DNA of 52,226 nt from a virus (IMGVR_UViG_3300032286_001250:1-52226); one strand, 5' to 3'. Positions 4,013 through 50,109 are shown, counted from the stretch's first letter. Translations and numbers: made by a program. The notes: a model not told the origin generated them from the sequence alone.

Positions 4013-4086
4013 CCGGTTCAGGAGGGGGTTACTCCCCTCCCCCCTTTGGAAGGGGTGGGTATGTGTACGCGTGCGTTGCGTCTGAT

Positions 4087-35215: not shown

Positions 35216-36145
35216 TCAGGCCTTTTCCATGACGATGGTGCTCTTGGGGTAGTAGAGCGCCAGGCCACCGATGCGGGAGTGGGCCGCAATGGTGAACTCG
35301 AGGCCGCGCCGCTCGGGAGGGAAGAACTCCAGGGGCTGCGGGATGTGCAGCTGGAGCTTGTCGGGCGAGCGGTCGTAGCAGATGATCCGGTCCTTGGACA
35401 GGAAGCCGAAGGACTTGGTGGCCTCGAGCTCGTTGATCGGCTCGATGCTGGTGATCATCGGGTTGGTGCGGAGGAAGAACTCCATCACCGTGGTGTCCGA
35501 CGTGGTCGAACGGGGCTTGGTCGAGATGATGCGGTACACGTTGTAGGGGACCAACATCGTGTTCGGCATCTCCTTCATGTTGGAGTTCTGGACGAGGCGG
35601 GTGGGGGCCTCGTTCAGCAGTTCCAGCATCTCGTCGGTGGTTGCGGCGTCGAACCAGACGGAGGGGACGAGCTTGTCGACCTGATCGTTGTTGAAGAAGC
35701 CCTTCATGCCCGAGGGGGAGTCACCGAAGTAGGCGATCTCCTGGACTTTCTCCTCGTAGGCGCGGCGCACGGCGTTGGCACGGCGCTGCTCCAGGTTCAT
35801 GTTGGGCACCATGGCGGCGGCCCGCGTTTCCTGGACGGAGTAGGCGAACGAGCCGCCCAGGGAGCGAACCGGGTAGTTCACTTCCTTCCGCAGGACGTCG
35901 GCGCGGGGCAGATCCTGTGCCTTGTCACCGATGATCTTCATCGAACCTTGCTTGTCGAAGATTCGATAGGTGAAGCTATCGGCGCCAGGTCCAACCTCGG
36001 AGGAGATCGGGATCAGGGTGCTGTACTTGATGTCGGCGTACTCGACCTCGAAGGTACGGGAGAGGATGGTCTCCAGTTCCCTCGCGAGAAAGACGCCGAC
36101 CTGATTGTCGAGTCGGGTGTCGTTTGTCATGGGGGTAGCCGTCAT
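35216..36145 (-). CDS. major capsid protein (DUF2184-type HK97 fold)
   Basis: FLARELE...YSVQE.RAA...A.RAYEE...AYFGD...G.KGFFN...GGL..YYP. Confidence 0.88.
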   Translation of the reverse strand: MTATPMTNDTRLDNQVGVFLARELETILSRTFEVEYADIKYSTLIPISSEVGPGADSFTYRIFDKQGSMKIIGDKAQDLPRADVLRKEVNYPVRSLGGSFAYSVQETRAAAMVPNMNLEQRRANAVRRAYEEKVQEIAYFGDSPSGMKGFFNNDQVDKLVPSVWFDAATTDEMLELLNEAPTRLVQNSNMKEMPNTMLVPYNVYRIISTKPRSTTSDTTVMEFFLRTNPMITSIEPINELEATKSFGFLSKDRIICYDRSPDKLQLHIPQPLEFFPPERRGLEFTIAAHSRIGGLALYYPKSTIVMEKA

Positions 36146-36759
36146 CAGACGTCGGCGGAGAAGGTGGCCGCGGGCAGGTCGAACTCGAGGAGAGCCAGAC
36201 CAGCAGCGGAGGTTTCGGACAGCCAGCGGGCGCCCGAGGTGACAGCGATCGTCTTGTTGGCGACCGCGGTTTTGCCCCACCGGCCCAGGTAGGCGGTGGC
36301 GATGGTGCCCGAGTGGTCCACTTTGTAGAAGCGGACGGCGTCACCGAGGCTGACGGCGACGGCGGACCACACCCAGATCACACCCTTGGAGAGGATGTTG
36401 ACCGTTTGGCCACTGGCGTAGCCCATGCGGCCATCGGAGGCCAGGGGGCTGGGGTTGGGGATGTAGGCCTGGCTGCTCGAAACGCCCTCGTGGGTGAGGG
36501 TGTCAACGGTGAGGCCGACGATGAGCGTGGCACCGGTTGCCGGCTCGATCGCGTACTGGTCGAGGCTCGTCGGGTTGTTATCGGTCATGCAGGGCACGCC
36601 GAAGGGGATGGCCGCGCCGCTCTGATTGAAGTAGCTCCGGGTCACATAGGCCTGGAGGTCGGCAATCATGCCCTCGTGGCCCACACCTTCCCGCTGGGGG
36701 TAGGTGCCTTGGGCGCCGATCGGGTTGGCGACGGTAGTGGCGGTGAAAGTAGTTGCCAT
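36145..36759 (-). CDS. capsid cement/decoration protein
   Basis: GMIAD...AIPFG...VNILSKGVIWV; lies between protease and capsid genes. Confidence 0.7.
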   Translation of the reverse strand: MATTFTATTVANPIGAQGTYPQREGVGHEGMIADLQAYVTRSYFNQSGAAIPFGVPCMTDNNPTSLDQYAIEPATGATLIVGLTVDTLTHEGVSSSQAYIPNPSPLASDGRMGYASGQTVNILSKGVIWVWSAVAVSLGDAVRFYKVDHSGTIATAYLGRWGKTAVANKTIAVTSGARWLSETSAAGLALLEFDLPAATFSADV

Positions 36760-36771
36760 GGGAGGTTCTCC

Positions 36772-38055
36772 TTACTTGGTGGCGGTGAGAGGACGCTTCC
36801 AGGCTTCCGCTTGCCGTTGCCGGTAAGCCGAGACCGGCTGGTCGGCGTCGTGACGCTGCGCTCCGCGCAGGGCGGTGCGAAGGCGGGAGGTGTGGTCGAC
36901 CGCGTCGCCGCGCTCGTCTTCACCGTCCTCGTCGTCTTCCTCTTCGTCGTCACCTTCCTCGTCTTCGAGGTCGTCCTCGGAGTCGTAGTGGGCGGCGAGC
37001 AGGCCGTCGACCACGCCGTGGACGTATTCGTCGCTGGCGTCGTCGGAGGGGGAGGAACCGGTCAGGTTCTCGAAGGCTTGGGCGTAGAGGTCGTCGTCGC
37101 CGATGCCGTCGAACTTGAAGTCAGGCTCGAAGGCGGGGGACAGGCGTTGAAGGGTGGAGAGGCGGGCAGCGACCAGTTGGTCGAGCTCCAGGGCGTCGAT
37201 GCGAGAGGCGCCTTCACCGTCGCTGTTCCCGAGAGCGTTCTCGAGGGCGTCGGCGCGGCCTTCGGCGGATTCCTTTTCGGTGGCGAGGGTTTCGAGTGCT
37301 TCCTCCAGCTCGTCAACCCTGGCTTGCAGGGCTTCGTTGTCGGAGGTGGCGGCCTGCAGCTGGCGTCCCATGTCCCTGGCGAAGGACTGGACCGCCGTAG
37401 CTGCTTCCGCGGGCAGATCGATCTCCAGGCCGTCGAGTTTGACGGTAGCCATGAGGGGAGATGCAGTTGGATTGATGGGTGACACCGAGTCGTCCTCGTG
37501 CTCGGCCACGGCGTCAGCCGCATCCATGCGATCGAGGAGAAGTCGAACCTCAGGGCCGGCACGGCCTCGGGGGACGATGGCGATGTGGTTGACCCTGATG
37601 TTGCGCTGGACGCCGTCGTAGGACTCGCCCTCGGGGGTGAATCCGGGGGTGGGGTCGAAGTCGACCTTGTAGCCGGCGGAGACCTCGGTGGCCTCTTTGC
37701 GCTTGATGCGCTCGACGGAATCTGCGTCGGTGACGACGAGAGCCACTTCTACAAAGCCATCAGAGAACTTGACTTGGGAGCCGGATGTTCCCTTGCTGAA
37801 TTCGCTGGTGTTTGTTGCGTCGAGGAGGACCGGGGGGTGGGTCCACGTCACGGGTTTCATGCCGAACGTCGCGAGGGTGTCGGGGTTGCCGACTTCCTCG
37901 GGCGGGCGATATTCCCGGACCTGGGAGCCATCAGCACGCCGGTACAGCTGTGTGCCCGTGCGAGCCGCTCGACACCAGACCCTGAGGTAGCCCTCGGGGG
38001 TGGTTTCGCTCCTGGTGATAGGGGCGAAGTCGTAGCGGCAGACTGATGCGTCCAT
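36772..38055 (-). CDS. prohead protease/scaffold (DUF2213-like)
   Basis: TPEGYL...ARTG.Q.Y...PVT.THP...EVSAGY...QRNIRVNHIAIVPRGRAG, then an acidic coiled-coil scaffold. Confidence 0.88.
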   Translation of the reverse strand: MDASVCRYDFAPITRSETTPEGYLRVWCRAARTGTQLYRRADGSQVREYRPPEEVGNPDTLATFGMKPVTWTHPPVLLDATNTSEFSKGTSGSQVKFSDGFVEVALVVTDADSVERIKRKEATEVSAGYKVDFDPTPGFTPEGESYDGVQRNIRVNHIAIVPRGRAGPEVRLLLDRMDAADAVAEHEDDSVSPINPTASPLMATVKLDGLEIDLPAEAATAVQSFARDMGRQLQAATSDNEALQARVDELEEALETLATEKESAEGRADALENALGNSDGEGASRIDALELDQLVAARLSTLQRLSPAFEPDFKFDGIGDDDLYAQAFENLTGSSPSDDASDEYVHGVVDGLLAAHYDSEDDLEDEEGDDEEEDDEDGEDERGDAVDHTSRLRTALRGAQRHDADQPVSAYRQRQAEAWKRPLTATK

Positions 38056-38117
38056 AGGGACAGATTACGCACTTCAGCTGTGGGCGTTAGCCTTACCCGC
38101 AGAGCGGATACCGTTGC

Positions 38118-38333
38118 GTGGCGATTCACAGGCAGCTTGTAATGTGTCGACGACTGCGTGTACTACGTGAGGAGAAGTTGTTGACGCAGAGTGACGTTGC
38201 AGAGAAGCTGGGGGTTAGTCAGGCTGCGTATTCAAGGCTGGAGAAAGGTGAGATTGAGGTATCGCTGAATAAGCTGATCAAGTTGAGTGAGTTGTATGGG
38301 TTGTCGCTTGCGGTGTTGTTAGAGGGGGTTTAA
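38118..38333 (+). CDS. XRE-family HTH regulator
   Basis: LRVLREEKLLTQSDVAEKLGVSQAAYSRLEKG is a canonical HTH_3 sequence. Confidence 0.85.
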   Translation: MAIHRQLVMCRRLRVLREEKLLTQSDVAEKLGVSQAAYSRLEKGEIEVSLNKLIKLSELYGLSLAVLLEGV

Positions 38334-38342
38334 GTTTTAGCT

Positions 38343-39971
38343 TTATGTAGTGGCCACTGGTGTGCCGAAAGGTTTTTTGCGCTGAGCTGCAAGACGTGCC
38401 TGGCGTTCCGGTTTAAGGGCCATGAATAAGTTTGCTGGTTTAAGTCCCATATTTTTAGCACCTTGTCTAAATAGTGTTGGATCGTTCATGTTGACCTGTT
38501 CCATAACCTGGCGTTGGAATGTATTGGCGTTGGCGGTTAGTATGCGGCGGGTGAGGCCGGGGATACGAGGCTGATCAGCGCCACTAACAAAACGAGAACG
38601 GGGTTTGCGATCATCCCACAAAAGCTCGGTTTCAATCAGATCGTGAAAACGGTTGATGGCTAGTTCGTACTTGTCCCAAGACTTATTGTAATCACGGGCT
38701 TGCGCTTCTACATTGTTAAATACCCCGGAGTATCTTTTCTGAAAATCGGTGCTGTTTAACCCTACAAAGTCTGGAAGTCTGTCCAAGTCGTACATTATGT
38801 TTTCTACGCCATCGCGGTTGTGTGCTACATGGGGAGCGTCATCGATCTGAGTTGAGTATCCAAAATCAACTAACGCTATTCTTTTGGAACGATCATTAGC
38901 CAGTATATTGCCACCATGGATGTCACCGTGTGCCAAGCCTTCTAGGTGTAGCTTGCGGAACTCTCGCAACGCTTTGACTTTGATAATGAGTGGCGCGTTG
39001 CCTAGGTTGTAACCTCCATTGGAATACACATCCGAAATTTCTTTGTAACCCTGCATGTGCCGCAAGGTCAAAGTTTCTCTAGAATAGCCGTCAGCGCTTG
39101 TGCTGCTGTTTATGGCTAAGGGCTCCGGGACGTTGACTCCTGCAGCGTGAGCTTTGCTCAGTCTGTCGAACTCCCATTCGGCCATGCCTATGTCGGGGTC
39201 CGAGTCACGAAATAGCTTAATCCCGTACTTCTCAGAACTGTGAACGAAATATGTACCAAAAGCACCAGCCCCAGCTTGACAACGCGGTGTGGGCACCATT
39301 GCGTCGAATTTAGCTGGGGCTAGTGTCTTTCCCAGGCTGCCACCGCATTTAGCTTGGGTCTCTGCTTGACGTCTAGCATTTATCTTTTCTTGAACTTCCC
39401 ACTTGTGATCGTGGGCTAAAGCCTCGTCAATAATGCGCTGATTCTCTTCGGGAGAGAGCTTGGGTGTATTGCGTGGGTTTTTAGGCGACTGACGCCACTC
39501 GTCCATGCTTTGGAATTTACGTTTTGCCAAATAAGCACCTCCAGCAATAGCTCCAGCGACAAGAGCGATTTTAGCTGCAGTTACGCCTGCGTTGTTAGTG
39601 GTAGTTCCCGCACCCTTACCGCATTTGTAGCCTTTGGGGATGTGTGAAGCCCCGCAGGGCTTGCCTTTGGCGGCCTCGGGGGAATCCTGGCGCAGCCGGG
39701 GTTTGCCTCCGGCGCCGTTGCGGGCGCGGTTGGTGGAGGGGGCTTCAAGGGTTGTGCCCCCCGAGGACGTGTGAGAGATGTCGGGGCCGCCTTTGCTGTA
39801 GATGCCGCGCCGGCGGCGCTCACGGTTCAGCGCGACACGCCGGTCGACTTCGTTGGGCTGGCGGTTGATGGCCGCCTGGTGGCGCACCTTGCGACGGCGG
39901 GCCTTGGGGTGGGTGCGGTAATAGGCCGTGGAGTCGCCCTCGGGGGCGTCGATCGTTACCAGGCCGAGGAC
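38343..39971 (-). CDS. protein-kinase-like domain protein, probably the -1 frameshift extension of 39956..40957
   Basis: GAGAFG, IKLF, WEF, HGDIHGGN and DFG kinase motifs, preceded by CGASHIPKGYKC and a hydrophobic helix; the only early start is a GTG (40025) inside the upstream gene. Confidence 0.75.
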   Translation of the reverse strand, partial: VLGLVTIDAPEGDSTAYYRTHPKARRRKVRHQAAINRQPNEVDRRVALNRERRRRGIYSKGGPDISHTSSGGTTLEAPSTNRARNGAGGKPRLRQDSPEAAKGKPCGASHIPKGYKCGKGAGTTTNNAGVTAAKIALVAGAIAGGAYLAKRKFQSMDEWRQSPKNPRNTPKLSPEENQRIIDEALAHDHKWEVQEKINARRQAETQAKCGGSLGKTLAPAKFDAMVPTPRCQAGAGAFGTYFVHSSEKYGIKLFRDSDPDIGMAEWEFDRLSKAHAAGVNVPEPLAINSSTSADGYSRETLTLRHMQGYKEISDVYSNGGYNLGNAPLIIKVKALREFRKLHLEGLAHGDIHGGNILANDRSKRIALVDFGYSTQIDDAPHVAHNRDGVENIMYDLDRLPDFVGLNSTDFQKRYSGVFNNVEAQARDYNKSWDKYELAINRFHDLIETELLWDDRKPRSRFVSGADQPRIPGLTRRILTANANTFQRQVMEQVNMNDPTLFRQGAKNMGLKPANLFMALKPERQARLAAQRKKPFGTPVATT

Positions 39972-40957
39972 TTTCCCGGCGTGAGCGCGGCGTCGCGGCG
40001 GCTGGTTTTGCCCGAGCACTTCCACTTGGCGCGGGAGAGGCAGAGGGGGGTGTTGCGCTCGGCGCCGGAGCAGTCGTAGCCCTCGGATTTCATGTCGCCG
40101 AAGGAACGGGCGCAGTAGTTATCGCCCTTGGAGGTGCCGGGGGCGATGGTGTAGCCCTTGGCGCCGTAGCGGACCTTGTTTTTGCGGCCGGTCTTGGGGT
40201 TGGTGACGACCTTGGTGTACTTCTTGCCGTCCTCGGTGTCCTTCTGAGCTTGGGCCTTTCTCAAACCTGAGGAGGTTGGGACGCAGTTGGGTACTTCGCG
40301 CTTGCCCTTGCGCTTCGTGCCAGCCTGAACGTAGCCCTCCCAGCAAGCATCGTTGCGCGAGATGGGGAAACTGCGGAGTAGCCGGGGGGTGAGGAGAGCG
40401 TCGCCTCGTGGGGTGTCTGAGAAGCGGGGCTTGCGGTAGCCGGGTTCGTAGCGGCGGCGCAGCTTCTCGATGGTGAGGTTATGCCGGCGCACACCGCTGC
40501 GGACGGAGGCACGGGCGGCTTTGCCGGACTTGTGCATGGCCGAAGCCACGGCGACGGTGCGCTCGATCTCGGCCTGGGCTGCCTTGGAGATGGCCTGCTC
40601 CGCTTCGCGGTTGGCGGACTGAGCAGCCTTGTGGAGGCGTTCAGTCTTGGACGGTGGACGCATCGTGGCGAGGGGGCCGTCCTCAGGGAAGCGCATCGAA
40701 GGTGGCTTGGCCGTGGCGCGGTGGACGGCCTCGGTGACACCCTGCTGTGCGGCGCGGCGGGCACGGCCGGGAGCGTTGAAGATGGCCTTGCGGGATCCCT
40801 TGAACAAGAGCGCACCGCCGACGGCGCCTGCGGTGAGGCCGGCGGCCAGGGCCGCTCGGCGAGGGATGGCGCCACCCTTGTGGCATGTCTTTCCCTGGGC
40901 GATGGCGCCCTGGCCACACTTCAGGTCGAGGCGGAGGGTGGAGGGGGTCAGGCTCAT
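39956..40957 (-). CDS. basic modular head-region protein
   Basis: RLD-LKCGQGAIAQGKTC, hydrophobic helix, CWEGY..PNCVP and YCARS motifs; ends just after G_GGA_AAG. Confidence 0.75.
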   Translation of the reverse strand: MSLTPSTLRLDLKCGQGAIAQGKTCHKGGAIPRRAALAAGLTAGAVGGALLFKGSRKAIFNAPGRARRAAQQGVTEAVHRATAKPPSMRFPEDGPLATMRPPSKTERLHKAAQSANREAEQAISKAAQAEIERTVAVASAMHKSGKAARASVRSGVRRHNLTIEKLRRRYEPGYRKPRFSDTPRGDALLTPRLLRSFPISRNDACWEGYVQAGTKRKGKREVPNCVPTSSGLRKAQAQKDTEDGKKYTKVVTNPKTGRKNKVRYGAKGYTIAPGTSKGDNYCARSFGDMKSEGYDCSGAERNTPLCLSRAKWKCSGKTSRRDAALTPGKSSAW

Positions 40958-41397
40958 TGCAGGTTGGTCAGCTTGTAAAGCGTGGAGTCGATCAGCTTCT
41001 GGATCGTGTCGATCTCGTTCTGGATCTCGCTGTCGTTTGCAACAGCGCCGCGGGTGTTGCGGACGTAGTTGCTCAGGGCCGTGACGAAGGGGATCGGCTG
41101 GCCTGTGGGGATGGAAGGGCCGTCGGGGTAGCTGTCGAGGACGCCGTATTTGCCCTGGTAGGCCTCGATCAGACCGTCAGTGAGTTCCTCGAGCTCGGAG
41201 TAGAAGGTGCCGAGGGCTGAATGCTGGCTAAAGCTGCGGCTCTTCAGGTGGAGGAGGTGGCCTGTGGTGACGGCGTCGAGCAGGGTTTTGAAGAACTCCC
41301 CGGCGGCCTGGGGGTCGGTGTTGCCGGCCTCGGGGGAATCGTGGCGGGTGGTGGTGGGGGCGAAGCCGGTGGCCCAGACGGAGGAGGTGCGTGTCAC
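40954..41397 (-). CDS. ferritin/Dps-like four-helix protein (DUF5856-like)
   Basis: HLLHL.SRSFSQHSALGTFYSEL..LTD.LIEAYQGKYG...QNEID.I...LYKL. Confidence 0.75.
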   Translation of the reverse strand: MTRTSSVWATGFAPTTTRHDSPEAGNTDPQAAGEFFKTLLDAVTTGHLLHLKSRSFSQHSALGTFYSELEELTDGLIEAYQGKYGVLDSYPDGPSIPTGQPIPFVTALSNYVRNTRGAVANDSEIQNEIDTIQKLIDSTLYKLTNLQ

Positions 41398-41407
41398 AGC
41401 GGTGCCC

Positions 41408-42847
41408 TCAAGCGCCGATGCGTTGGAGTGATTGAGTCACTTCGCGGGCGTGCTTGTGGCGGAGGGCCTGCATCTCACTGCGTGAGGCGCCTTTGGTACG
41501 TGCTCGCTTCAGCTCGGCTTCTTGGCGCGGGCCGAGTTTACTCATCGCAGATTGAATCTTCGCGTTATTGGCTCGTCCTGCTTGATATTGACCGCGAATA
41601 GCCTTGCCGGTCTTATAGCCCAGAGCTTCGGATGCACCTCCCAGTGCGCCAACACCAGCGCCGTAGGCAGTACCGCCTGCCGCACCAAGGAGGGCACCCT
41701 TCACAGCACCGCGACCACCGCCGGTCAATGCGCCGATCGCAGCACCCCCGAGGGCACCACCGATAGATCCACCAATCGCGCCCTGTTTCACCCCGAGTTT
41801 CGCCATCTGCTTCACGCTGGATGGGTCTACACCACGCTTCACGTAGTAGGGATGGACGGTGTTAGTAAGTCCACCGAGCGCTCCACCACCTGTCCACCTG
41901 TTCTGTGTAGGGCCTCCGCCTGCACCTTTGTGGCACTTCTCGCCTTTGGAGATGGCGCCTGCACCACACTTGATGTCTTCGCGGATCAGGCCGTCGAAGA
42001 CGGCGGCGTCAAGGGTGAAGCCGTCGGCGTACATGGAGTCTGCCCACGGGCTCTTAATGCTCCCGCCAGGGCCGAGCTTCGGTTTGGGCATCGGCTTGTT
42101 GATACGGCGGTTGACCATGCGCTCTTTGTACAGCTTGTTCTTGCCGACTTCGAGACCGACTCGGGCTTTGCGTGCCCCGGTGGCGAAGCCGCTGCGGGCG
42201 CGGCCGAGACCTGAGCTGGCGGTGCGGCGGGCCATGCCCATACCGGTGCGGGCTTTGCGCATGCCGGTGGAACCGGCGGTGCGCAGGCGGGGGGCAGCTT
42301 TGCGCAGGGCAGAGCCGGCACGACGGAAGGCGCCGCTGCGGTGTCCGCCGTAGGCCAGGGCGGCGACGCCTCCGGCGATGGCGGCCCCGGTGGCCACCCG
42401 GCGTGCGGTGCTGCCGTTGTTCTGGCTCTGGCCGCCGGAGGAGCGGAAGTCTTGGCGGAGGGCGTCCTCGGTGTCGAGGCGGGCACGGATGTAGGCCTTG
42501 GGCTTGTTCTGGATCCCGAGGTCGCAGGCGTCGAGGTACTCCTGCGGGGAGAGGGCGTCGTTGTTCATGCGGGAGTTTTTGCGACCGGGGTTGTAGAGCT
42601 CGCCAGGTCCGGCGGAGGTGTCACCTTCCTTCTTGCCCGTGCAGGGTTTGCCAGCAGCGCAGGCGGAGCAGGAGCCGTCCTTGACGGCCTTGCGGCCACG
42701 ACGACCGCGGCGTCCTTTGGACATGGGGGGCATGTCTTCGGAGCCTTCGCGCATCTGCTCGTCGGGTGATTCTGTGGACTCGTCGTCCGGGGATTCACCG
42801 GCCTCGGGGGCTGAAGGCTTGGGGCGACGGCGCATTGCGGCGGGCAT
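41408..42847 (-). CDS. basic modular head-region protein with glycine zipper
   Basis: RLD, RQD and RED sites; CGAGAISKGEKC; two Gly/Ala hydrophobic stretches. Confidence 0.7.
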   Translation of the reverse strand: MPAAMRRRPKPSAPEAGESPDDESTESPDEQMREGSEDMPPMSKGRRGRRGRKAVKDGSCSACAAGKPCTGKKEGDTSAGPGELYNPGRKNSRMNNDALSPQEYLDACDLGIQNKPKAYIRARLDTEDALRQDFRSSGGQSQNNGSTARRVATGAAIAGGVAALAYGGHRSGAFRRAGSALRKAAPRLRTAGSTGMRKARTGMGMARRTASSGLGRARSGFATGARKARVGLEVGKNKLYKERMVNRRINKPMPKPKLGPGGSIKSPWADSMYADGFTLDAAVFDGLIREDIKCGAGAISKGEKCHKGAGGGPTQNRWTGGGALGGLTNTVHPYYVKRGVDPSSVKQMAKLGVKQGAIGGSIGGALGGAAIGALTGGGRGAVKGALLGAAGGTAYGAGVGALGGASEALGYKTGKAIRGQYQAGRANNAKIQSAMSKLGPRQEAELKRARTKGASRSEMQALRHKHAREVTQSLQRIGA

Positions 42848-42883
42848 GGGCGTAGGGCGTGTGCCCGAAAGCGTTGGCCCAGA

Positions 42884-43759
42884 TTATCGCTGTAAAGGAG
42901 TGGGGGTAATCTGCTCAAAACTTGCTGGCTTGTTCAGCGGTACGGTTTCAGGGAGACGTACAGCCTTCGCAACATCTTTCTTATGTGTTTCACGCATCTT
43001 CTCGTATTCGGGATCCATTGCATTGGTGTCTTCATCCCAGGGGGCCAAATAGCACCGGCAGCGGGGATGGATGGGAACTTTGACGTCTCCGCGTTTGTAG
43101 ATGTGGCCAGCACGAGGGGCACAGTATGGGCAGCTCCTGTCATCTGCAGTCGCGTAGTACATAACCTGCGAGATGCCGCGAGCTGCGTAGTAGGTGTCTG
43201 AAGCGTTGTTGTAGGCGCGAAGCGCCTCGGTGCGGACGATGACGTTGGCGCGGGACTTGACGATGCCGAGGCGGCTGCGCATGTCCTGGACCATGGCGTC
43301 AGTGGGCCGGCCTTCGGCAATGCCTTGGGCGACGGTGGTGGCAGCGGTTTCGGCGAAGGTCTGGCCGTGCTTGGCGAGGTAGCCACGGGCCTGCTTCGCA
43401 GCCTCGACGGTGGCCTCGATGGGAATGGAGACGTCGATGCGGCCGTGGCCGGGAAAAGCGGCCTCGGTGAGATCGTTGGCAATGGCCAGGCCTTGACCTT
43501 GGGCAGAGAGGGCGAGGTTTCGGAAGATTCGGTCATAGGCGTCGACCCGATCGGGGTTGTAGGCCGGGACCAGGAGGCGGAACTCGCGCAGCAGGGACAG
43601 GTTGCGCTGGGCCGGGTCGATGATGCCGGCCTTCATCTGGGCGCGGACACGGATCACCAGGCGGCGGAACGCTGCATCGAGGACACCGTTGAGGAGGCGG
43701 ATGGTGCCGTCCTCGGTGGTGCGCAGGAGTTCGTTGTAGCGCTCAATCAGGCTGGACAC
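42884..43759 (-). CDS. minor head protein (MuF / SPP1 gp7 family)
   Basis: RANVIVRTE..RAYN...DDRSCPYC...PIHPRCRC. Confidence 0.9.
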   Translation of the reverse strand: MSSLIERYNELLRTTEDGTIRLLNGVLDAAFRRLVIRVRAQMKAGIIDPAQRNLSLLREFRLLVPAYNPDRVDAYDRIFRNLALSAQGQGLAIANDLTEAAFPGHGRIDVSIPIEATVEAAKQARGYLAKHGQTFAETAATTVAQGIAEGRPTDAMVQDMRSRLGIVKSRANVIVRTEALRAYNNASDTYYAARGISQVMYYATADDRSCPYCAPRAGHIYKRGDVKVPIHPRCRCYLAPWDEDTNAMDPEYEKMRETHKKDVAKAVRLPETVPLNKPASFEQITPTPLQR

Positions 43760-46593
43760 TTGGCAGCCTGGTAGTGGCGCTTAGCTGCTAGGAACATGCG
43801 CACACGGGGTGGTAGCTCATCCTCAGCGTCACCACGGATCATATTGCCGATGTACTCGAACTGGTTGTCCGGGATCTCAGTGAACTTACCCTGGTTTTTC
43901 AGTGCCCAGAGTTTGTCGCCTTTCAGATTGGGAAGAGCCTTAAAGCCCATCTTCTCATAGATTGATTTGCGCTTGCCGCCTTTGCCGTCAGCTTTGTGCG
44001 GCACAGCGAACAAGAAAGCGTCATCCGGTAGCATATCGAGCTGAGCACTATACATCGCTTTTGTGGTCTTGATCAGCTGCTTGGCTTGTTTGCTTGGGAT
44101 GTCTGTGGCGGCGTCGTATTTTGTATCCACAGTGAATCCAAGGCCGAATTGCTGAAACTTCCCGACGTCAGCTTTGTGCTCAGCGCCGAAGGTTAGCAGG
44201 CTGTCACCCACGGAGCCGATAGAGATGTGCCCACCACTAGGTGTGGACCATGTGGAGAAATTATTGTCGATGTCTACAGCTCTGATTTGAGCTCCCTGGG
44301 CTTTTAGTGCCATGTGGGCTGCCCCCAGCTTGGCATCACCTACAAGCCTACTGACAGGGTCACGGAAGTTCTCGGGGAGCTTGGCGATAGCCTGCTTCAC
44401 TTGTTTGGCTGAGAGACCTTGTATGGCTTGTTGACTCAGGTTAGGGACAAGTGTTGAACGATTCTTGTACACAAACAAGCTGCCTGCCGTGAGAGCAGCG
44501 GCCCCGGTGACAGCAACTACAGCCGCGGCTGTCTTTACTTTTGAACGTGTGGAACTTTCTGGTGCGCTGGGCTGTGAAGGTTCTCTCTGACTGGGCGCAG
44601 CACTGGATGAACCTGGGGTTTCACCGCATTTGTGGCCTTTAGGGATGAAGCTGCGACCACAGGGCTTGCCCGTGTGCTGCGCTGCAGTCTGGAAATCCAG
44701 GCGACGTTGGACCTCCAGGAAGGAACGCACTCGTGGGGGGAGAGCGTCGCCGCGGAGGTGGGCCTGGTCGTAAGCCGTTTCTGCAGAGCCACGACTCCCG
44801 TATATGCGCTGTTTGTCAAGTCCTTGTACCCGCTCAAGTGAGCTCACAGCTTGAGCACGAGTCTCGCGCCTGGTTACATTCTTAATGGTGACTGTTTTAT
44901 TAAAATTGATGCCGCTCAAGTCGTAGTATTGGCGACCTGACGGATTGGCTAGCTGCTGGCGCTCCCAAAGTCTAATTTTACTCTCTTTCCCTGGTACTGC
45001 GTATTCGAGGCCGGGTTGGCGTTGGATAATGCGGAATGCCTCAGCTATAGATGTTACTTTCTGGCCAGACCAGTCGGCAGCAGCTGTAAGAGCTTCGCGA
45101 TCAGTAATGGCGAAACTATTGACGCCTCTTACCTTTGTGTTGAAGAAGGCTTTGTTTACAACCACCCCAGCCGAGGATCCGGGGACGGTGAGCCGGCTAT
45201 TCATAACGGCTGCTACGTGTCGTGCATGGGCGTATTCAGCATCTTGCAGGAGTTGGGCGCGATTTCGTGCGCTGCCTTCTAATTTTGTATCTAGTTTCAA
45301 TTCATCCGCAGTACGCGCATAGAACTTGTCGAATTGACTGAGAGTATCGTTATACACACGCTTGGCTTCGCCGTTAATCACCTCTGTCCTATTCTGGAAC
45401 AATAGATAGCGTTCGACTGTGTCGACGGCGTCGCTGCGCATGCTGTCTGGGAGATGCACACCGCTCTCGGTGAGAACACTGTTTGCGAATGCTCGGCGAG
45501 TGCGCTGCCGCGTTAGATCTACGCCACGCTGTACGGCCAGTAGCTGGAGTGCGCTTGATTGATCTTGAATTTGGTCTGCCAACGCACGGACAACTGCATG
45601 ATCGGTGCTGAGCCGACTGATGTTACTACGATCGCGCAAGCTGAAAGTGTCAGCCAGGAATTCTTTGGTGGCATCGCCGCTGTACACAATACGATTCGTA
45701 GGCTTGCCGAAACGATCTTTCACGCGAATGTCAAAGAGCTTTCGTGTGCTTTCACGCAACCATTCCTGACGAGTTACGCCTGGAGTGTTTTGAGCAAGGC
45801 GCACTTCTTCGTTGATGTGGCTGCTGATTGCTGCGGAGTAGCTCGTCGTCGTCGAAATGGTGCGGGGGAGCGGGGCGCCTGGCCGCTCAATCTGAGCCAG
45901 CATCGAGGCTGGACCAACACTGTTGGTGTGACGCAGGCTTTGGGCGATGGAAGCTGCGCTCTGTCGCCCTCGGAGGCGGGTGTTTTCCCGTGGGCCGAGG
46001 GCGCTGGGATCGAAACGGCGGACCACGCCCATGACGGCGTTCTCTCCGGTATCCATTGCCCGACTGAAAGTGTCGAAAGCTGCCTTGTTAAAGGGTTGGT
46101 AGACCCGATCCCTATAAAAAGGGATATTGGCGAGACCACGGTGTGCAGCAATACCACCAGCGACGGCGGCTGTGATACCTACAATTAAACCTGTACGCTT
46201 CAGTAGCTCTTTCTGCTTCTCTTTCTTGTCTTGAATGTTGCCGGGAGTGGCTTTGACCACGCCGCGGACGATGGCGCGGCGGCCGGCGTCTACCTCGGCG
46301 ACGCTGCCTTTCTTGATGCCCTTGATGACGCGGCGGAAGCCACGCTCGATTGAGGCGGCTCCGCCGACGGGGTCGGTGGTGGCGGCGCGGAGGTGGTTGT
46401 CGGTGCCCTCACCCTTGAGGCGGCAGTCCCAGTTGGGTGGGATGCAGCGGTTGCCACAGAGTTTGTTGGGTGGGGTGCATTTGACGTTGCGGCGCGTCTT
46501 GCCGGAACGGCTGAGGCCGGGGGCGTCGAGGCGGGCCTGGGCGGCCAGGAAGGTGGCGGCGCGAATCTCGGAGCGATCTGGTGTTGTGGTCAT
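43747..46593 (-). CDS. two-module head-region polyprotein (C-terminal GNAT-like domain)
   Basis: ATG at 46593 overlaps the portal stop (ATGA); two RLD + Cys-motif + hydrophobic-helix modules. Confidence 0.75.
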   Translation of the reverse strand: MTTTPDRSEIRAATFLAAQARLDAPGLSRSGKTRRNVKCTPPNKLCGNRCIPPNWDCRLKGEGTDNHLRAATTDPVGGAASIERGFRRVIKGIKKGSVAEVDAGRRAIVRGVVKATPGNIQDKKEKQKELLKRTGLIVGITAAVAGGIAAHRGLANIPFYRDRVYQPFNKAAFDTFSRAMDTGENAVMGVVRRFDPSALGPRENTRLRGRQSAASIAQSLRHTNSVGPASMLAQIERPGAPLPRTISTTTSYSAAISSHINEEVRLAQNTPGVTRQEWLRESTRKLFDIRVKDRFGKPTNRIVYSGDATKEFLADTFSLRDRSNISRLSTDHAVVRALADQIQDQSSALQLLAVQRGVDLTRQRTRRAFANSVLTESGVHLPDSMRSDAVDTVERYLLFQNRTEVINGEAKRVYNDTLSQFDKFYARTADELKLDTKLEGSARNRAQLLQDAEYAHARHVAAVMNSRLTVPGSSAGVVVNKAFFNTKVRGVNSFAITDREALTAAADWSGQKVTSIAEAFRIIQRQPGLEYAVPGKESKIRLWERQQLANPSGRQYYDLSGINFNKTVTIKNVTRRETRAQAVSSLERVQGLDKQRIYGSRGSAETAYDQAHLRGDALPPRVRSFLEVQRRLDFQTAAQHTGKPCGRSFIPKGHKCGETPGSSSAAPSQREPSQPSAPESSTRSKVKTAAAVVAVTGAAALTAGSLFVYKNRSTLVPNLSQQAIQGLSAKQVKQAIAKLPENFRDPVSRLVGDAKLGAAHMALKAQGAQIRAVDIDNNFSTWSTPSGGHISIGSVGDSLLTFGAEHKADVGKFQQFGLGFTVDTKYDAATDIPSKQAKQLIKTTKAMYSAQLDMLPDDAFLFAVPHKADGKGGKRKSIYEKMGFKALPNLKGDKLWALKNQGKFTEIPDNQFEYIGNMIRGDAEDELPPRVRMFLAAKRHYQAAKCPA

Positions 46594-48461
46594 GCGTACA
46601 CCTCCCAACCTGCTTTGAGGGAATCGGCTTCGACCTCGGGGATAGGTGTCAGTCCTGCCACAGTTTGTCGAGGCCAGAGTTTCTCGAGTCCGCTGCGGGC
46701 GGCGCGGAGGGTGGCGAAGCCGGTGACATAGGGACCTGGGACCAGCTCGTCTGCTCGTGCGAACGACGCCCGGTAGAGGCGATAGGCGCGGGTGCGCTGC
46801 GGGCCAAGCACCAGGAGGGGAGCGTCGGCTGAGCTGTCGGTGCGCTGGCCATCGGGGCCGACGAGGTAGCCCGCCCGGACATCGCCGGCAGTGTGCGTCA
46901 CCCGGATGCGCAGGCCTCGGACTTCGTAGACATCGAAAGCGTCCTGCTTCGCGTTCGGGTCGGGCTCTGCCGGCAGGATGCCTCCACCGTTGGTGGGGTC
47001 TGGCTCCGCCGGAGCTGCTCCGCCCTCGGGGGGCTGTGGGGCGCTGGGATCAGCCGCAGGCTGAGGGTTGAGCATGGCGTCCTGCTGCGCCTGCATTGAG
47101 AGCAGGGAGTTCTGGAACTCCGCGTCGGCCTGGGTGGCCAGCTGCTCGGTGACCGCCTCGTTGAGGGTGGTTTCGGTGCTGTAGCTGGTGCCGCCGAAGC
47201 GGGACTCGCGCACTTCGATCGCCTTGAGGACACCGGAGTTGATGTATTGGACGTCGGTGGCGGCCGTGTTGGCCCGCAAGTTGGCCTTGTCCTCTTCAGT
47301 CTGGGTGAAGACGGAGGGGAAGCTGACGGCCCAGGACTCGGGGGGCTTGCCGCGGGTCGGGCCTTCCCGGCTGAGGAGGATGTAGGTGAAGGCCTCGGTG
47401 AGGGCCGGGCGGCAGTAGACCTCTTGCCATTGCTCGACGATCGAGGCCCAGACGCGCTCCTCGAAGCGGCCCTCCTTGCCCAGGCCGCCGGGCGACTCGC
47501 CCATGAGGATCGAGGCGGGCCAGCCCGTCTCGGCCTGCAGGGCGGTGACGAAAGGGTCGGTGGCCGAAGCGATGTTGCCTAGGGCGCGGCTCAAGAAGGT
47601 GACGTCCTCCTCGGTGTCGATCGCCATGCCCCCATAGAGGGAGCGGGAGAGGATGTTGGCCTCCAGGCGTTTGCGCATCCCCTCCTCGTTGCCCTGGGCG
47701 AGGCGGTTGAACAGGCCTGGGATCTTGTGGACGAACAGGTCGGCGTCGGAGACCATGTTCTCAAGGCCGGCCAGGGCCGATTCGTAGCGCTTATAGGCGT
47801 GCCACAAGAGCTGCAGGACTGACTGGCCCCAGCCTGTGTTACGGGTGCGCAGCTGCCAGGGCAGATACAGACCGTCGAAACGTGCTACACGACTGTGATG
47901 CACATGCACATCGACATACGCTTCGCGTTGTGCGTCGGTCAGCTTCTGACTGGTGGTGATCCGGTAGTGCTCAGGCTTGGAGTAATCCGCTGAGGTGAGC
48001 TCCGTCGGGATCAGCTCCCAGCGGGAGAGGGGGATGAAACCCCGGATGGCCCGGATGCGGGAGGTGTTGACCGGTTCACTCTCGGGGAGCCCGTCGTCGA
48101 TCAGCATCACCAGGCCGGCGCCGCCGTAGAGGCGCTGGAGCTTGACGACCTCGGAGTAGGCCTGGTGGAAGTTCGTGTTCTTCAGGAACTCCTCGACCTT
48201 GGTGATCACCTCGTTGTCGGTGTTGTCACCCCCGAGGGTGATGGTGACGCGGTGCCGGAGCATCTCGTCGGCGACGCTATCTACCAGGCGCCGGGGAAGT
48301 CCGTTGAGATAAAGCTGCTCAAGTTCTACGCTGCTGAGCAGCTGTTGTACATTAACTTGTGTCGCTGTAGTCCGGTCTTTCCCGGTTGTACCCATTCCCG
48401 TCAATACATTGACTAAGGAACCGTCGTTCCGGTAATCTTCAGTAGGAGCGACGGTGGGCAC
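46590..48461 (-). CDS. portal protein (DUF1073-type) with C-terminal extension
   Basis: N.LTG.G...LY....RRLVD..ADEM.R...RLYGGAG...VHHSRV..FDG...WGQSVLQ...P..ILMGESPGGL; follows terminase. Confidence 0.88.
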   Translation of the reverse strand: MPTVAPTEDYRNDGSLVNVLTGMGTTGKDRTTATQVNVQQLLSSVELEQLYLNGLPRRLVDSVADEMLRHRVTITLGGDNTDNEVITKVEEFLKNTNFHQAYSEVVKLQRLYGGAGLVMLIDDGLPESEPVNTSRIRAIRGFIPLSRWELIPTELTSADYSKPEHYRITTSQKLTDAQREAYVDVHVHHSRVARFDGLYLPWQLRTRNTGWGQSVLQLLWHAYKRYESALAGLENMVSDADLFVHKIPGLFNRLAQGNEEGMRKRLEANILSRSLYGGMAIDTEEDVTFLSRALGNIASATDPFVTALQAETGWPASILMGESPGGLGKEGRFEERVWASIVEQWQEVYCRPALTEAFTYILLSREGPTRGKPPESWAVSFPSVFTQTEEDKANLRANTAATDVQYINSGVLKAIEVRESRFGGTSYSTETTLNEAVTEQLATQADAEFQNSLLSMQAQQDAMLNPQPAADPSAPQPPEGGAAPAEPDPTNGGGILPAEPDPNAKQDAFDVYEVRGLRIRVTHTAGDVRAGYLVGPDGQRTDSSADAPLLVLGPQRTRAYRLYRASFARADELVPGPYVTGFATLRAARSGLEKLWPRQTVAGLTPIPEVEADSLKAGWEVYA

Positions 48462-48500
48462 TGCGTTATTAGCCTCTCTGAGGACAATTTAACGCTGCCA

Positions 48501-48598
48501 CACGATGATGCGGTCGCCGTTCACGAACATGCGCGTGCTACGCACAAACATGGGCAAGCTGCGCACGAACATGGGCACACCGTTCACAAACATGGGCA
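48501..48598. repeat. 21-bp-phased direct repeats (CAC[G/A]AACATG)
   Basis: Cores start at 48501 (degenerate), 48522, 48543, 48564 and 48585, exactly 21 bp apart. Confidence 0.85.
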
Positions 48599-48627
48599 GG
48601 GCGTTCGCCCGCGCAGCGGGCGGCGGG

Positions 48628-50109
48628 CTAGAGGTTGTCGAAGAGGGAGGAGATGGTCTGGGTTTCGGGGATGAGGGAGCAGGCCATGGCCAGGGCCATG
48701 ACGGTGTCGTCGTGGGTGCCGGCGGCGGCCTCGCGTGAGCCTCCCTCCTTGTGCTGGAAGGAGCGCAGCTCCGCTGGGATGATGCCTGGGGGGAAGATCA
48801 GCTCGTCGCGCTCGAGGAGGTAGAGGACGCGGTCGGTGGCGGTGAGCTTGCTCGGCCGGCTGGTGCTGAAGGTCTCGATGGCGTAGGTGGGCAGGATGCC
48901 CTGGAGGACTTCAGCGATGACCTGGCCCATCGCCTGTTTCTCCACGACGACACGCTGGGGCATGTAGTCCTCGATGAGGTTGCGGACCTTCTGGAGGCTG
49001 TATTCGGTGCTTTTACCGTTTTCGCGGAACATGCCAACGACCTCGAAGGGCGCCTTGCTGATGTCGAGGACCAGGGCGACGAAGTAGTCGTTGCCTCCGG
49101 CGTTGGGGTCGATGCCGACCACGTAGTGGCGGTTGACGACGCCACATTCGCGCCAGTGGCCGCGGGCGGCTCGGGTGACAAGTGCGGTGGGGTAGACCTG
49201 GGTGTCAGTGGCGCCGAAGGCCAGTTCGTACTCGGAGGCCCAGGCGCTGCGCGTCATGCGGCGCGACTCGCGGGTCTTGTCTGCCCAGTCGGGGTCTTTG
49301 CTGTAGACGGGGTGCTGGCTGTAGTGGATCGCGATCCGGTTCCAGTCGTCTTTGATCAGGGCGAGTTCGGTGTTGAGCCCGTCGATGTCGCCTGTCTTGA
49401 CGTGGTCGTACCAACTGGTGGGGATGCCCTGGTGCCAGAGGCCGCCGAAGAAGTCGACCTCGGTGTCGGGCGTGGAGGTGATGATCACCTTGGCGGCGTC
49501 GCCCAGCATCGAGAGGACGGGCATGGCGCCCCGGTAGATCTCGGCGGCGCCATCGAGGAAGGCCGCTTCATCCAGCCAGAGGACGGAGCCCGAAGGGATC
49601 CCTCGGGCGGCGCGGGGTGAGGCCGGCAGGAAGTAGAGGGTGCCCCGGCCCTCGAAGGCGATCTGGGTGGTGGAGTCAGTGAGGTACTTGAAGCTCTCGC
49701 CGACGATCGAGTTGGCCATGGCCCGGACCCGGCGGCCCAGCTCGCTGGCGTCGCTCTGGGTCTTGGAGAAGACGACGGCCGCGAAGCCGCGCTCGGTGAG
49801 GGCGCGACAGAGGAGGTAGCTGGCGACGGTCTCGGAGACGCCCATCTGGCGGCTCTTGTTGACGATCGTGTTGGGGGCGGCGTTGATCGCCCGGACGAGT
49901 TCGATCTGGAAGTGGTAGGGGTCGAACTGGGCGACGGTGCCGCTGGTACGGATCCAGGTCTTGCGGGCGAAGGCCGGCCAGTTGGACACGCCGGGCAGGG
50001 TGGAGACGGGCTTCGCCGCGGCGGAGTAGGTGTTGGCCCGCTGGTTCTGGCGCCGCACCTCCTCTTCGAGGCGGGCCAGGCGGGAGCGCAGCGGGGCGAG
50101 GGAGCTCAC
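48628..50109 (-). CDS. terL: terminase large subunit
   Basis: KSRQMGVS Walker A, WLDEAAF Walker B, TSTP coupling motif; GIDP, VEK and HDDTVMALA nuclease motifs. Confidence 0.93.
   Translation of the reverse strand: MSSLAPLRSRLARLEEEVRRQNQRANTYSAAAKPVSTLPGVSNWPAFARKTWIRTSGTVAQFDPYHFQIELVRAINAAPNTIVNKSRQMGVSETVASYLLCRALTERGFAAVVFSKTQSDASELGRRVRAMANSIVGESFKYLTDSTTQIAFEGRGTLYFLPASPRAARGIPSGSVLWLDEAAFLDGAAEIYRGAMPVLSMLGDAAKVIITSTPDTEVDFFGGLWHQGIPTSWYDHVKTGDIDGLNTELALIKDDWNRIAIHYSQHPVYSKDPDWADKTRESRRMTRSAWASEYELAFGATDTQVYPTALVTRAARGHWRECGVVNRHYVVGIDPNAGGNDYFVALVLDISKAPFEVVGMFRENGKSTEYSLQKVRNLIEDYMPQRVVVEKQAMGQVIAEVLQGILPTYAIETFSTSRPSKLTATDRVLYLLERDELIFPPGIIPAELRSFQHKEGGSREAAAGTHDDTVMALAMACSLIPETQTISSLFDNL

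Follow-up and report, generated by a model that had tools for sequence, protein, structure and literature searches.

Which proteins does an uncultured phage encode between its portal and its head-maturation protease, and what are they for? This question is raised by the IMG/VR virus record IMGVR_UViG_3300032286_001250 (positions 1-52226), in which the region from 38343 to 48461 had been singled out by a first-pass annotation made from the sequence alone. Four open reading frames (ORFs) between the portal and a DUF2213 protease were described there as carrying five copies of a cysteine motif, C-G-x3-I-x5-C, each preceded by an R-x-D tripeptide and followed by a Gly/Ala helix and an unrelated domain, and were read as an interchangeable family of packaging tag, membrane anchor, and payload. 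The complete record, referred to below as the window, comprises 52,226 bases and is estimated to be 75% complete. Our analysis revealed that the motif genes are cassettes, in which a common module precedes exchangeable payloads, and that the motif is restricted to the portal-protease interval in the window and in two complete genomes of another lineage. That the cassettes encode cargo which is packaged into the capsid and processed there is a reading to which we assign a probability of about 0.5.

A six-frame regular-expression scan detected C-G-x3-I-x5-C exactly five times in the 52,226 bases, always on the minus strand, against a chance expectation of 0.25 copies (mean of 200 mononucleotide shuffles of the window; maximum 2). 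All five copies fell into the portal-protease interval, distributed over four ORFs of 953, 479, 333, and 560 amino acids (aa), and their positions agree within about 20 bases with those first reported. Every R-x-D tripeptide listed earlier (RLD, RLD, RED, RLD, and RQD) was recovered as well. Copy 1, CGNRCIPPNWDC (46423-46458, minus strand), lies in the 953-aa ORF behind RLD at 46525-46533 (residues 26-28) and ahead of a hydrophobic helix at 46141-46191; it represents a four-cysteine form when the upstream C-T-P-P-N-K-L is included, while the other four copies have two cysteines. The same ORF harbors copy 2, CGRSFIPKGHKC (44626-44661, minus strand), preceded by both RGD (44746-44754, residues 619-621) and RLD (44695-44703, residues 636-638) and followed by a hydrophobic helix at 44467-44529. 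Copy 3, CGAGAISKGEKC (41933-41968, minus strand), was found in the 479-aa ORF with RED at 41975-41983 (residues 289-291), and copy 4, CGQGAIAQGKTC (40883-40918, minus strand), in the 333-aa ORF with RLD at residues 9-11 and a hydrophobic helix at 40802-40855. Finally, copy 5, CGASHIPKGYKC (39621-39656, minus strand), belongs to the 560-aa ORF, where RQD (39684-39692, residues 112-114) stands before and a Gly/Ala helix (39525-39578) behind it. An uncharged Gly/Ala helix, expected after each copy, was thus present downstream of four of the five and missing from one; the two helices quoted in the first description are residues 150-167 of the 560-aa ORF and 694-714 of the 953-aa ORF.

Starting from 109 IMG/VR relatives of the portal, 80 loci were retained (56-99% identity, 950,139 bases in total), which carried the motif 278 times on the gene strand versus twice on the opposite strand. 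Together with the window this resulted in 81 loci and 283 copies, for which the search pattern itself dictates C, G, I, and C. The remaining positions revealed preferences for K or P before the first cysteine, S, G, or R at position 4, P or S at position 7, and K at position 11. A third cysteine at position 5, paired with a cysteine seven residues upstream, occurred in 88 of the 283 copies, and histidine was present at position 5 in 75 copies and at position 10 in 79; only two cysteines are invariant throughout, with the four-cysteine form and a C/H/H/C-like form, CGxSHIPKxHxC, as variants. At the invariant residues all synonymous codons are used (TGC 171 and TGT 112; four Gly codons; ATC 200, ATT 70, and ATA 13), so that the constraint acts on the peptide and not on the DNA. 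Modelling of the N-terminus of the 953-aa protein with AlphaFold2 (AF2) was based on 35 aligned relatives, across which C24, C31, G32, C35, I36, W40, and C42 are invariant, and reached a mean predicted local distance difference test (pLDDT) score of 64.8. In the model, K-L-C and R-C-I form the strands of a beta-hairpin whose turn contains the invariant Gly (pLDDT about 70-74), and the chain continues with a pair of helices and then an extended hydrophobic helix. We regard the hairpin as a small autonomous fold on which selection acts through the protein; that it folds by itself follows from the three tandem copies seen in small proteins with a signal-peptide-like start (see below).

In regard to the upstream flank, an R-x-D tripeptide was located within 30 residues of 280 of the 283 motifs (shuffles: mean 30.7, maximum 49), and the extended form R-x-D-A was counted 260 times in the motif-bearing set, with 63.8 +/- 6.5 expected. 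Where the motif is the first of its ORF, Met stands exactly 13 residues before the first cysteine in 22 of 43 cases, and separate cassette genes begin with M-x-L-T-P-x-x-h-R-x-D-[L/K]-K-C-G.

A further element was seen at the other end of the units, many of which close with [D/S]-[S/A]-[V/I/M]-[W/Y]-A-[D/E]-G-F and 2-16 more residues before the next leader or the stop codon, e.g., S-M-Y-A-D-G-F-T-L-D in the 479-aa ORF (window 41975-42100). It also ends cassette ORFs in loci L004, L012, L030, L061, and others, as well as in proteins P0046, P0054, P0063, P0065, and P0069. In its strict form, [WY]A[DE]GF, it was found 21 times in motif-bearing frames, 19 of them separated from the frame end by 2 or 9 residues and the other two lying 16 residues ahead of a motif. 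Judged by this placement, the element may mark where a unit ends at its C-terminus.

Exchange of payloads between genomes

For a comparison of what follows the hairpin, frames were cut into units at each motif and the payloads clustered by single linkage (blastp, E <= 1e-5, >= 50% coverage). The 255 complete units fell into 28 payload clusters, which appear in 50 different orders among the 81 loci, many of these loci being truncated contigs, with 1 to 9 cassettes per locus. Cluster 0, which represents the first unit of the 953-aa protein, invariably comes first; it stands directly behind the portal as a core gene (65 loci), and fused to it comes one of clusters 2, 4, 10, or 15. Usually the order ends with cluster 1, the 333-aa type with 31 members, and the kinase cluster 6. 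Payload clusters were encountered both as genes of their own and as in-frame fusions, cluster 1 for instance with 7 N-terminal and 15 internal copies. The proposed interchangeable family is therefore borne out by the shared N-terminal module, the number of clusters and orders, and a break of sequence identity behind the motif.

This break was most evident in locus L002, which shares 97% nucleotide identity with the window over 51240-42194 and loses it from 42194 on. Beyond that point only similarity islands of 116, 509, and 144 bases remain, and two extra cassettes are present. The first island (42040-41925) and the third contain little beyond one motif-coding stretch each, while the 509-base island takes in the DUF5856 gene and extends to the motif that follows; locus L003 displayed the same pattern. 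Over all pairs of loci, 24.9% of blastn high-scoring segment pairs (HSPs) ended 0-39 nucleotides past a motif compared with 2.5% for random positions, and 35% versus 9.4% started within 150 nucleotides upstream of one. Genomes that share about 9 kb of flank at 97% identity have swapped payloads, which would suit an arms-race locus, in phages that are probably picocyanobacterial. A word-indexed search with only the N-terminal 60 residues of the 333-aa protein also led to mixed company, namely 18 proteins with a kinase, DnaJ, or PF19197 domain or no Pfam domain; the other 17 of the 18 are of metagenomic origin and are labelled 'hypothetical protein' at most.

Pfam searches covered representatives of 20 of the 28 clusters and three further clusters seen as whole window proteins. 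They revealed kinases (clusters 6, 8, and 11), LRAT/NlpC-P60 (cluster 4), DnaJ (clusters 9 and 16), and, as a borderline case, a lipase or alpha-beta hydrolase (cluster 21). For cluster 10, only a sub-threshold ATLF row was obtained (17.9 bits, cut-off 27.4), and the remaining scanned clusters matched no Pfam family. The kinase-like payload named in the first-pass annotation was confirmed in the 560-aa protein by matches to Kdo (E 9.3e-7), APH (1.6e-6), ABC1 (4.6e-5), and RIO1 (3.7e-4). Its remark on AT-richer payloads holds too, with a G+C content (GC) of 0.49 for the kinase and 0.53-0.55 for the payloads of the 953-aa protein versus 0.65 for portal and protease. A GNAT-like payload, in contrast, was not recovered, as Pfam gave no match and a profile of 18 relatives run against PDB sequences returned only porin rows (E 0.56-0.85); the label had been based solely on an I-Y-E-K-M-G-F stretch and was dropped.

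The hairpin beyond close relatives

Profile A1, built with 36 columns from 88 diverse motif copies, was run against 1.84 billion cluster representatives and resulted in 709 proteins at E <= 1e-3, 178 of them at E <= 1e-10. Of the best 150 matches, 148 contained 2 to 6 copies per protein (regular expression relaxed at two positions), and ten matches that were looked up are all known from metagenomes only. As predicted, the payloads behind the motif are diverse. The predicted tie to head loci with DUF1073 and DUF2213 stood in part: the motifs keep to the portal-protease interval in the window (5/5) and in the two complete genomes described below (9/9 and 3/3), while matches of the profile extend past this head type.

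Among them, P0108 (3278 aa) and P0079 (2212 aa), with five copies each, are true polyvalent proteins with eight and five Pfam families, respectively, which include InPase, LPD1, ART-PolyVal, NUDIX, ADP-ribosyltransferases, 2H, and poly(A) polymerase/HD. Their hairpins lie between domains, are followed by no helix, and are preceded by h-x-N-[S/A]-x(0-4)-[Q/K]-P. The 105-kb contig of P0079 harbors 12 motif copies spread over five ORFs; one of these has a Mu-like prophage protease domain at its end, and on this contig Mu-like_Pro was present while DUF2213 was not found. The protein with the Mu-like protease domain (L084, 5658-6878; PF10123, residues 269-404) itself has a hairpin at about residue 102, its PF10123 match being reported with one in-frame TGA.

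A third lineage comprises relatives of P0091 with a GC of 0.62-0.67, and a fourth is represented by P0001. In the third lineage, the four-cysteine form reads R-[I/L]-D-A-x-[K/R]-x-K-C-x-T-G-Y-x-C-G-S-x-C-I-S-x-x-K-E-C and the two-cysteine form C-G-G-x-W-I-D-P-x-K-x-C. Contigs of both lineages carry a DUF1073 portal (5/5) and DUF2213 (4/5, the exception being 48% complete), and the Mu-like protease was detected in none of the four tested. In two complete third-lineage genomes, all motifs found in six frames, 9/9 and 3/3, lie between portal and DUF2213, an interval that takes up 20.0 of 70.8 kb and 16.9 of 67.3 kb. Across these lineages the motif is retained at a GC of 0.48 to 0.67 and with unrelated flanks.

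A search of all IMG/VR with a DNA pattern for the subtype D-x-K-C-G-x3-I-x2-G-x-K-C, in which the portal was not a criterion, yielded at least 119 stretches; among the matches listed, 75 of 78 new loci have relatives of the core head genes of the window, and the other three are fragments of 1-5 kb. The same pattern gave seven stretches in 185,579 species genomes, four of which are chance matches in short frames. The three real ones are L277, on a 1-kb contig binned with a Rhodoluna metagenome-assembled genome (MAG), and L280 and L281, on one 43-kb contig of a Thermosynechococcus sp. MAG. The latter contig carries four modules of the P0001 type and may stem from a phage or prophage of a thermophilic cyanobacterium, a host assigned by binning. 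P0117 (125 aa) and P0140 (100 aa), encoded on metagenomic contigs of 0.9-1.3 kb, combine a signal-peptide-like start with three tandem copies of K-G-V-K-C-G-D-S-Y-I-A-A-G-x-x-C-H-K, so the hairpin is also used outside phage heads, perhaps as a disulfide-bonded periplasmic repeat. For P0053, no relative was found in viral_contigs. No Pfam family covers the motif in the window proteins, P0117, P0140, or the other relatives scanned, and profile A1 obtained no match among PDB sequences at E <= 10.

A candidate processing site and the readings it allows

R-x-D is not limited to the cassettes. The DUF2213 protein of the window contains R-x-D-A at residues 176, 267, 285, 382, and 401, and R-x-D-[A/S/T] stands directly behind the Pfam protease domain (residues 176-178 in the window) in all 45 distinct DUF2213 proteins aligned, as well as at two sites of the C-terminal half in 44 and 40 of the 45; three further sites are less strict. 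The capsid protein of the window starts with M-T-A-T-P-M-T-N-D-T-R-L-D (RLD at 36107-36115), which resembles the cargo leader, and in 27 of 27 distinct capsid N-termini R-x-D occurs at residues 6-13, e.g., in M-T-T-E-I-R-N-D or M-S-N-E-R-L-D. Cultured phage S-CBS4 likewise has M-S-E-F-R-M-D in its capsid protein and R-Q-D-A-A (residue 159), R-A-D-A-L (residue 246), and others in its protease. In phages T4, phiKZ, and SPN3US, a fixed tripeptide ending in Glu is the site behind which the prohead protease cuts. The enzyme strips internal proteins of their leaders of 10-20 residues, the capsid targeting sequences (CTS), which are all that this diverse set of injected proteins has in common, and it also trims the capsid protein and cleaves its own C-terminus (PMC5694885, PMC3012670). 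Since the tripeptide is shared by cargo, capsid protein, and protease, the analogy with these phages suggests that R-x-D is the cut site of the DUF2213 protease.

From these comparisons we infer packaging, cleavage at R-x-D, delivery, and a role for the hairpin as follows. The portal-protease interval would encode an array of cargo proteins that become part of the procapsid, undergo trimming by the DUF2213 protease, and reach the host together with the DNA. Each cassette would consist of a leader or linker ending in R-x-D (the 11-residue M-x-L-T-P-x-x-h-R-x-D when the cassette is a gene of its own), the 12-residue beta-hairpin between the two cysteines of C-G-x3-I-x5-C, in most cases an uncharged and potentially membrane-inserting Gly/Ala helix, and an exchangeable payload (kinase, LRAT/NlpC, J-domain, lipase-like, and many without a known family). 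R-x-D followed by A, S, T, or L would be recognized and cleaved as the counterpart of (L/I/A/S)-x-E in T4, phiKZ, and SPN3US; the cut would remove the leader or separate fused cassettes, and the mature unit would start a few residues before the hairpin. The hairpin's own role is the weakest link of this proposal: most likely it is a common handle for docking or retention in the prohead or a recognition element on the P' side of the cut, and it may also be a metal or disulfide staple. A complex prediction for MuF (alignment A4) with the module (A1) scored 0.00, which speaks neither for nor against binding.

Effectors borne in the head and injected are known from several phages, among them the internal proteins and Alt of T4, Dar of P1, and the virion RNA polymerase of N4. 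The T4 capsid targeting sequence is matched in sequence pattern only, by the 11-residue R-x-D leader of the 333-aa ORF and the recurrence of the tripeptide in capsid protein and protease tail. Differences are the DUF2213 protease, a site that ends in Asp instead of Glu, the hydrophobic helices within the cargo, and a cysteine hairpin that would stay on the mature protein and has no T4 counterpart. PHROG and Pfam gave no link of the cargo to the T4 internal proteins or Alt, and the protease is of the DUF2213 and not the gp21 type. In MuF polymorphic toxins, variable C-terminal toxic or enzymatic domains are attached to a conserved head module in the portal-MuF region (Jamet et al. 2017, PMC5576092). 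There the carrier is a fused MuF, whereas MuF is a stand-alone protein here, the motif ORFs have no MuF domain, and the hairpin is the common module.

Among the closest parallels in print are the polyvalent proteins, multidomain or modular effectors encoded beside virion late genes and MuF, for which packaging, peptidase processing, and injection are predicted and which have kinases and GNATs among their listed domains (Iyer et al. 2017, PMC5512222). The four window ORFs resemble them in their place among virion late genes with MuF, and the relatives P0108 and P0079 carry the hallmark domains InPase, LPD1, and ART-PolyVal (PMC5512222) and combine two or more domains of disparate biochemical activity in one polypeptide. 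Within the window, the 953-aa protein has two payloads without a recognized family, and the 560-aa protein combines a kinase-like with a phrog_6437 domain; none of the hallmark domains searched for (zincin-like MPTase, LPD1-40, ArdC-N, and others) was found in the window proteins or payloads with Pfam at E <= 0.01. Unlike polyvalent proteins, the window cassettes mainly occupy ORFs of their own or ORFs of two units and include a hydrophobic helix, and their presumed processing enzyme is the prohead protease instead of a zincin. Head-borne, injected multidomain effectors had thus been described before (PMC5512222), and the novelty first claimed for the whole system shrinks to the delimiter module. 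This module looks undescribed: neither Pfam nor PDB offers a match, and the main text of PMC5512222 does not refer to it ('cysteine', 'linker', and 'zinc ribbon' have 0 occurrences), though the supplementary alignments might name the motif otherwise.

By portal, the closest cultured relative is the Synechococcus siphovirus S-CBS4 (39.5% identity), so that a cyanobacterial host is likely. It shares the order of large terminase, DUF1073 portal, MuF, inserted genes, DUF2213 protease, and capsid protein, as well as R-x-D-[A/S] in the capsid N-terminus and protease tail. It differs in the content of the portal-protease gap, where cargo cassettes are replaced by genes for glycosyltransferases, a methyltransferase, and HNH, and neither its first 22.6 kb nor the first c. 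22 kb of CL131 contained the hairpin motif, even with a relaxed regular expression. By title and abstract, the DUF2213 literature offered nothing on cleavage specificity and the S-CBS4 literature nothing on the motif.

Several observations weigh against packaged cargo or its cleavage. In hairpins of the G-K-P-C-G type, R-L-G stands next to the hairpin and R-x-D only 9-22 residues upstream. The counted sequences are related, so that the enrichments above reflect conservation and not independent trials. With the InPase and ART domains of P0079, 70 IMG/VR loci were retrieved, of which 69 lack the motif, the exception being the contig of P0079 itself, and the motif was rejected as a general trait of polyvalent proteins. 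Among cultured phages (INPHARED), megablast of window 36000-50200 and tblastn with the 953-aa ORF, P0019, and a 36-aa module returned no match or nothing better than chance rows (E 5-7), so that a cultured phage with the motif was not found. The interior of a capsid is an awkward place for hydrophobic helices, which would be just as much at home in ordinary membrane proteins. Two cysteines alone are too few for a zinc site, and the AF2 confidence for the hairpin is moderate. The upstream context varies with the protease, R-x-D occurring with DUF2213 (4/5 contigs) and h-x-N-[S/A] on the sole Mu-like_Pro contig lacking DUF2213, which fits a cleavage site but is a single case on the Mu-like side. 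Lastly, the identity of DUF2213 as a protease is an annotation (phrog_530; S-CBS4 record).

The helices lead to an explanation that is unlikely in our estimate, namely that the motif genes encode late-expressed membrane proteins outside the virion, which act in host takeover, superinfection exclusion, or lysis timing and occupy a permissive gap of the head operon. Hairpin and helix would then form a common anchoring or oligomerisation module and not a capsid tag. In 199 of 255 complete units an uncharged hydrophobic 17-mer lies no more than 130 residues behind the motif, versus 2 of 161 control segments further downstream, the payloads are AT-richer, a common trait of acquired accessory genes, the interval of S-CBS4 tolerates insertions of glycosyltransferases, methyltransferase, and HNH, and P0117 and P0140 show the hairpin at work outside capsids. 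However, accessory genes would not be expected to keep strictly to the portal-protease interval in three lineages or to share R-x-D sites with capsid protein and protease, and the explanation does not sit well with a first cassette that is a core gene behind the portal in 65 loci or with hairpins between the helix-less domains of polyvalent proteins.

A place behind the portal would also suit structural ejection or pilot proteins like T7 gp14-16 or P22 gp7/20/16, with the hairpin as an assembly interface and the enzymes as secondary additions. With 1 to 9 cassettes per locus and 50 orders in 81 loci, a fixed stoichiometric machine is hard to fit, and many payloads are enzymes (kinases, LRAT/NlpC, J-domain); we regard this explanation as improbable. 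Support for it comes from the 953-aa protein, which is conserved and portal-adjacent, has helices able to span a membrane, and contains a 450-aa middle domain predicted with confidence as all-alpha and without an enzyme signature. In addition, phrog_220 ('minor head protein and DNA pilot'), a much longer profile, matches the portal, and the 4.2-kb portal gene of the related CL131 suggests portal-pilot fusions in relatives. For this core protein the explanation overlaps with the packaged-cargo reading.

We give about equally little credit to a third explanation, by which the hairpin is a metal- or disulfide-stapled spacer kept as a junction for domain shuffling by homologous recombination. Similarity islands of about 115-145 nucleotides over the motif between diverged cassettes, HSP starts and ends clustering around it, and the four-cysteine and C/H/H/C-like forms are what such a junction would leave; yet all synonymous codons are used, the motif persists over a GC of 0.48 to 0.67 with unrelated flanks, and a pure spacer would need neither the invariant Gly and Ile nor the fixed place after R-x-D. 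As a sole explanation, a DNA repeat or recombination site was rejected because of the synonymous codon use, and a lipoprotein or signal-peptide leader was discarded on sight, the leader being charged and without a hydrophobic core.

Carried further, packaged and processed cargo could mean that R-x-D leader and hairpin form a portable, protease-coupled loading signal for HK97-type heads with DUF2213, the first sequence-defined one outside T4 and the jumbo phages, used by a large uncultured and probably cyanobacterial siphovirus clade to load a fast-changing set of membrane-anchoring enzymes (kinases, J-domain proteins, LRAT/NlpC hydrolases) that reach the host with the DNA, with the hairpin marking the cut points of some giant polyvalent proteins; this extension is tentative, and we lean toward doubting it. 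Should the tag function as a cargo mark, a simple sequence rule, an R-x-D leader and then C-G-x3-I-x5-C, would tell which proteins an uncultured phage injects, and would provide a catalogue of several hundred candidate injected-effector clusters, many without a known fold. It would also predict the cleavage specificity of the widespread, uncharacterised DUF2213 head proteases and supply a short tag to be tried for loading foreign proteins into siphovirus capsids, similar to the use of the T4 capsid targeting sequence.

Proteins and gene order of the window

The 953-aa core cargo candidate (43747..46608, minus strand) consists of two units with one motif copy each, and neither Pfam nor PHROG gave a family for this ORF. 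Its first unit comprises R-L-D, the four-cysteine hairpin, a helical hairpin, the hydrophobic helix, and an all-alpha domain of about 450 aa; the second comprises RGD/RLD, a two-cysteine hairpin, a hydrophobic helix, and a domain of about 240 aa without a known family. AF2 predicted the 450-residue middle domain with a mean pLDDT of 75.6 (181 residues >= 90). In PDB and BFVD, Foldseek found no match to this domain at E <= 1e-3 (best template modelling score about 0.1), VIA-align against 48,161 chains reached Z 4.6 at best with none >= 5, and the ESM Atlas returned no usable match; the absence of structural neighbours does not make the predicted fold new.

In the 479-aa protein (41408..42847, minus strand; one motif copy), an acidic, cysteine-rich N-terminus is followed by a basic low-complexity stretch, motif copy 3, and a Gly-rich tail, the part downstream of the motif being a singleton payload (cluster 27). 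PHROGs revealed only a weak match to phrog_167 (tape measure; E 0.0022, residues 228-433), which overlaps the motif. Such a composition would suit a DNA-associated internal protein, though this is only an impression. Members of this family (window 42600-42847; P0046, P0057, P0065, P0069, P0105, and P0125) start with the acidic stretch, continue with a cysteine-rich run such as C-G-C-x-x-K-K-G-x-K-C-D-G-N-C-G, and carry a conserved A-L-T-P-x-E-Y-L-x-A-C-D-L-G-I-Q...Y-I-R-A-R-L-D block before the first hairpin.

The 333-aa unit (39956..40957, minus strand; one motif copy) consists of the 11-residue leader M-S-L-T-P-S-T-L-R-L-D, motif copy 4, a hydrophobic helix, and a payload whose residues 200-327 (window 39977-40360) include a C-W-E-G-Y...V-P-N-C-V-P stretch, matched at residues 200-249 by phrog_9737 and other PHROGs of unknown function, and a C-terminal cysteine-rich domain. 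This domain (tblastn, residues 242-327) revealed 64-69% identity to hypothetical proteins of the cyanomyoviruses S-TIM5, S-TIM54, S-TIM61, and S-TIM66 and of Roseobacter phage CRP-212; Vibrio phages were matched more weakly. In loci L022, L024, L066, L071, L077, and L079, this domain is situated upstream of the hairpin and not downstream.

The 560-aa unit (38343..40025, minus strand; one motif copy) starts with a phrog_6437 domain (residues 31-109, E 3.3e-20), followed by RQD, motif copy 5, the Gly/Ala helix, and the kinase-like payload. The phrog_6437 domain appears as an insert (window 39699-39935) between I-D-A-P-E-G and the G-K-P-C-G hairpin and is flanked by two R/x-D sites, while in L013, L014, L061, and L074 R-x-D-A-P-x-G joins G-K-P-C-G directly without it. 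From this arrangement, the insert could be freed as a separate small peptide.

On the minus strand, the genes of the window follow the order large terminase (48628-50109), DUF1073 portal, 953-aa ORF, MuF, 479-aa ORF, DUF5856, 333-aa ORF, 560-aa ORF, DUF2213 protein, a 204-aa ORF, and major capsid protein, so that the four motif ORFs sit among virion late genes from portal to protease with MuF between them. The portal (Phage_portal_3; 46590..48461, minus strand; PF06381, E 2.7e-57; phrog_146, E 2.7e-87) forms the upstream edge of the cassette array and the DUF2213 head-maturation protease (36772..38055, minus strand; PF09979, E 2.4e-43, residues 18-172; phrog_530, E 2.3e-81) the downstream edge, the C-terminal half of the latter being acidic, coiled, and scaffold-like. 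Two genes within the array lack the motif. One encodes the MuF-like minor head protein (42884..43759, minus strand; PF04233, E 9.6e-13; phrog_115, E 1.7e-23), a separate ORF of 291 aa without an extension, in which the Pfam match stops at residue 238. The other is the Dps-like DUF5856 gene (40954..41397, minus strand; PF19174, E 3.3e-18; phrog_858, E 6.1e-24), which is kept in L002 (93% nucleotide identity), L216, and L223; the label of phrog_858 is 'starvation-inducible transcriptional regulator'. The major capsid protein (35216..36145, minus strand) was identified by phmmer against the PDB capsid proteins 9kmg and 8hdt (E about 3e-30). Elsewhere in the window, low-G+C islands were seen at 4001-6000, 13001-14000, and 28001-29000 (0.48-0.54 versus about 0.62-0.67 around them), one of them inside a 1923-aa ORF (25062-30833) that, judged by size and position, probably encodes the tape measure protein.

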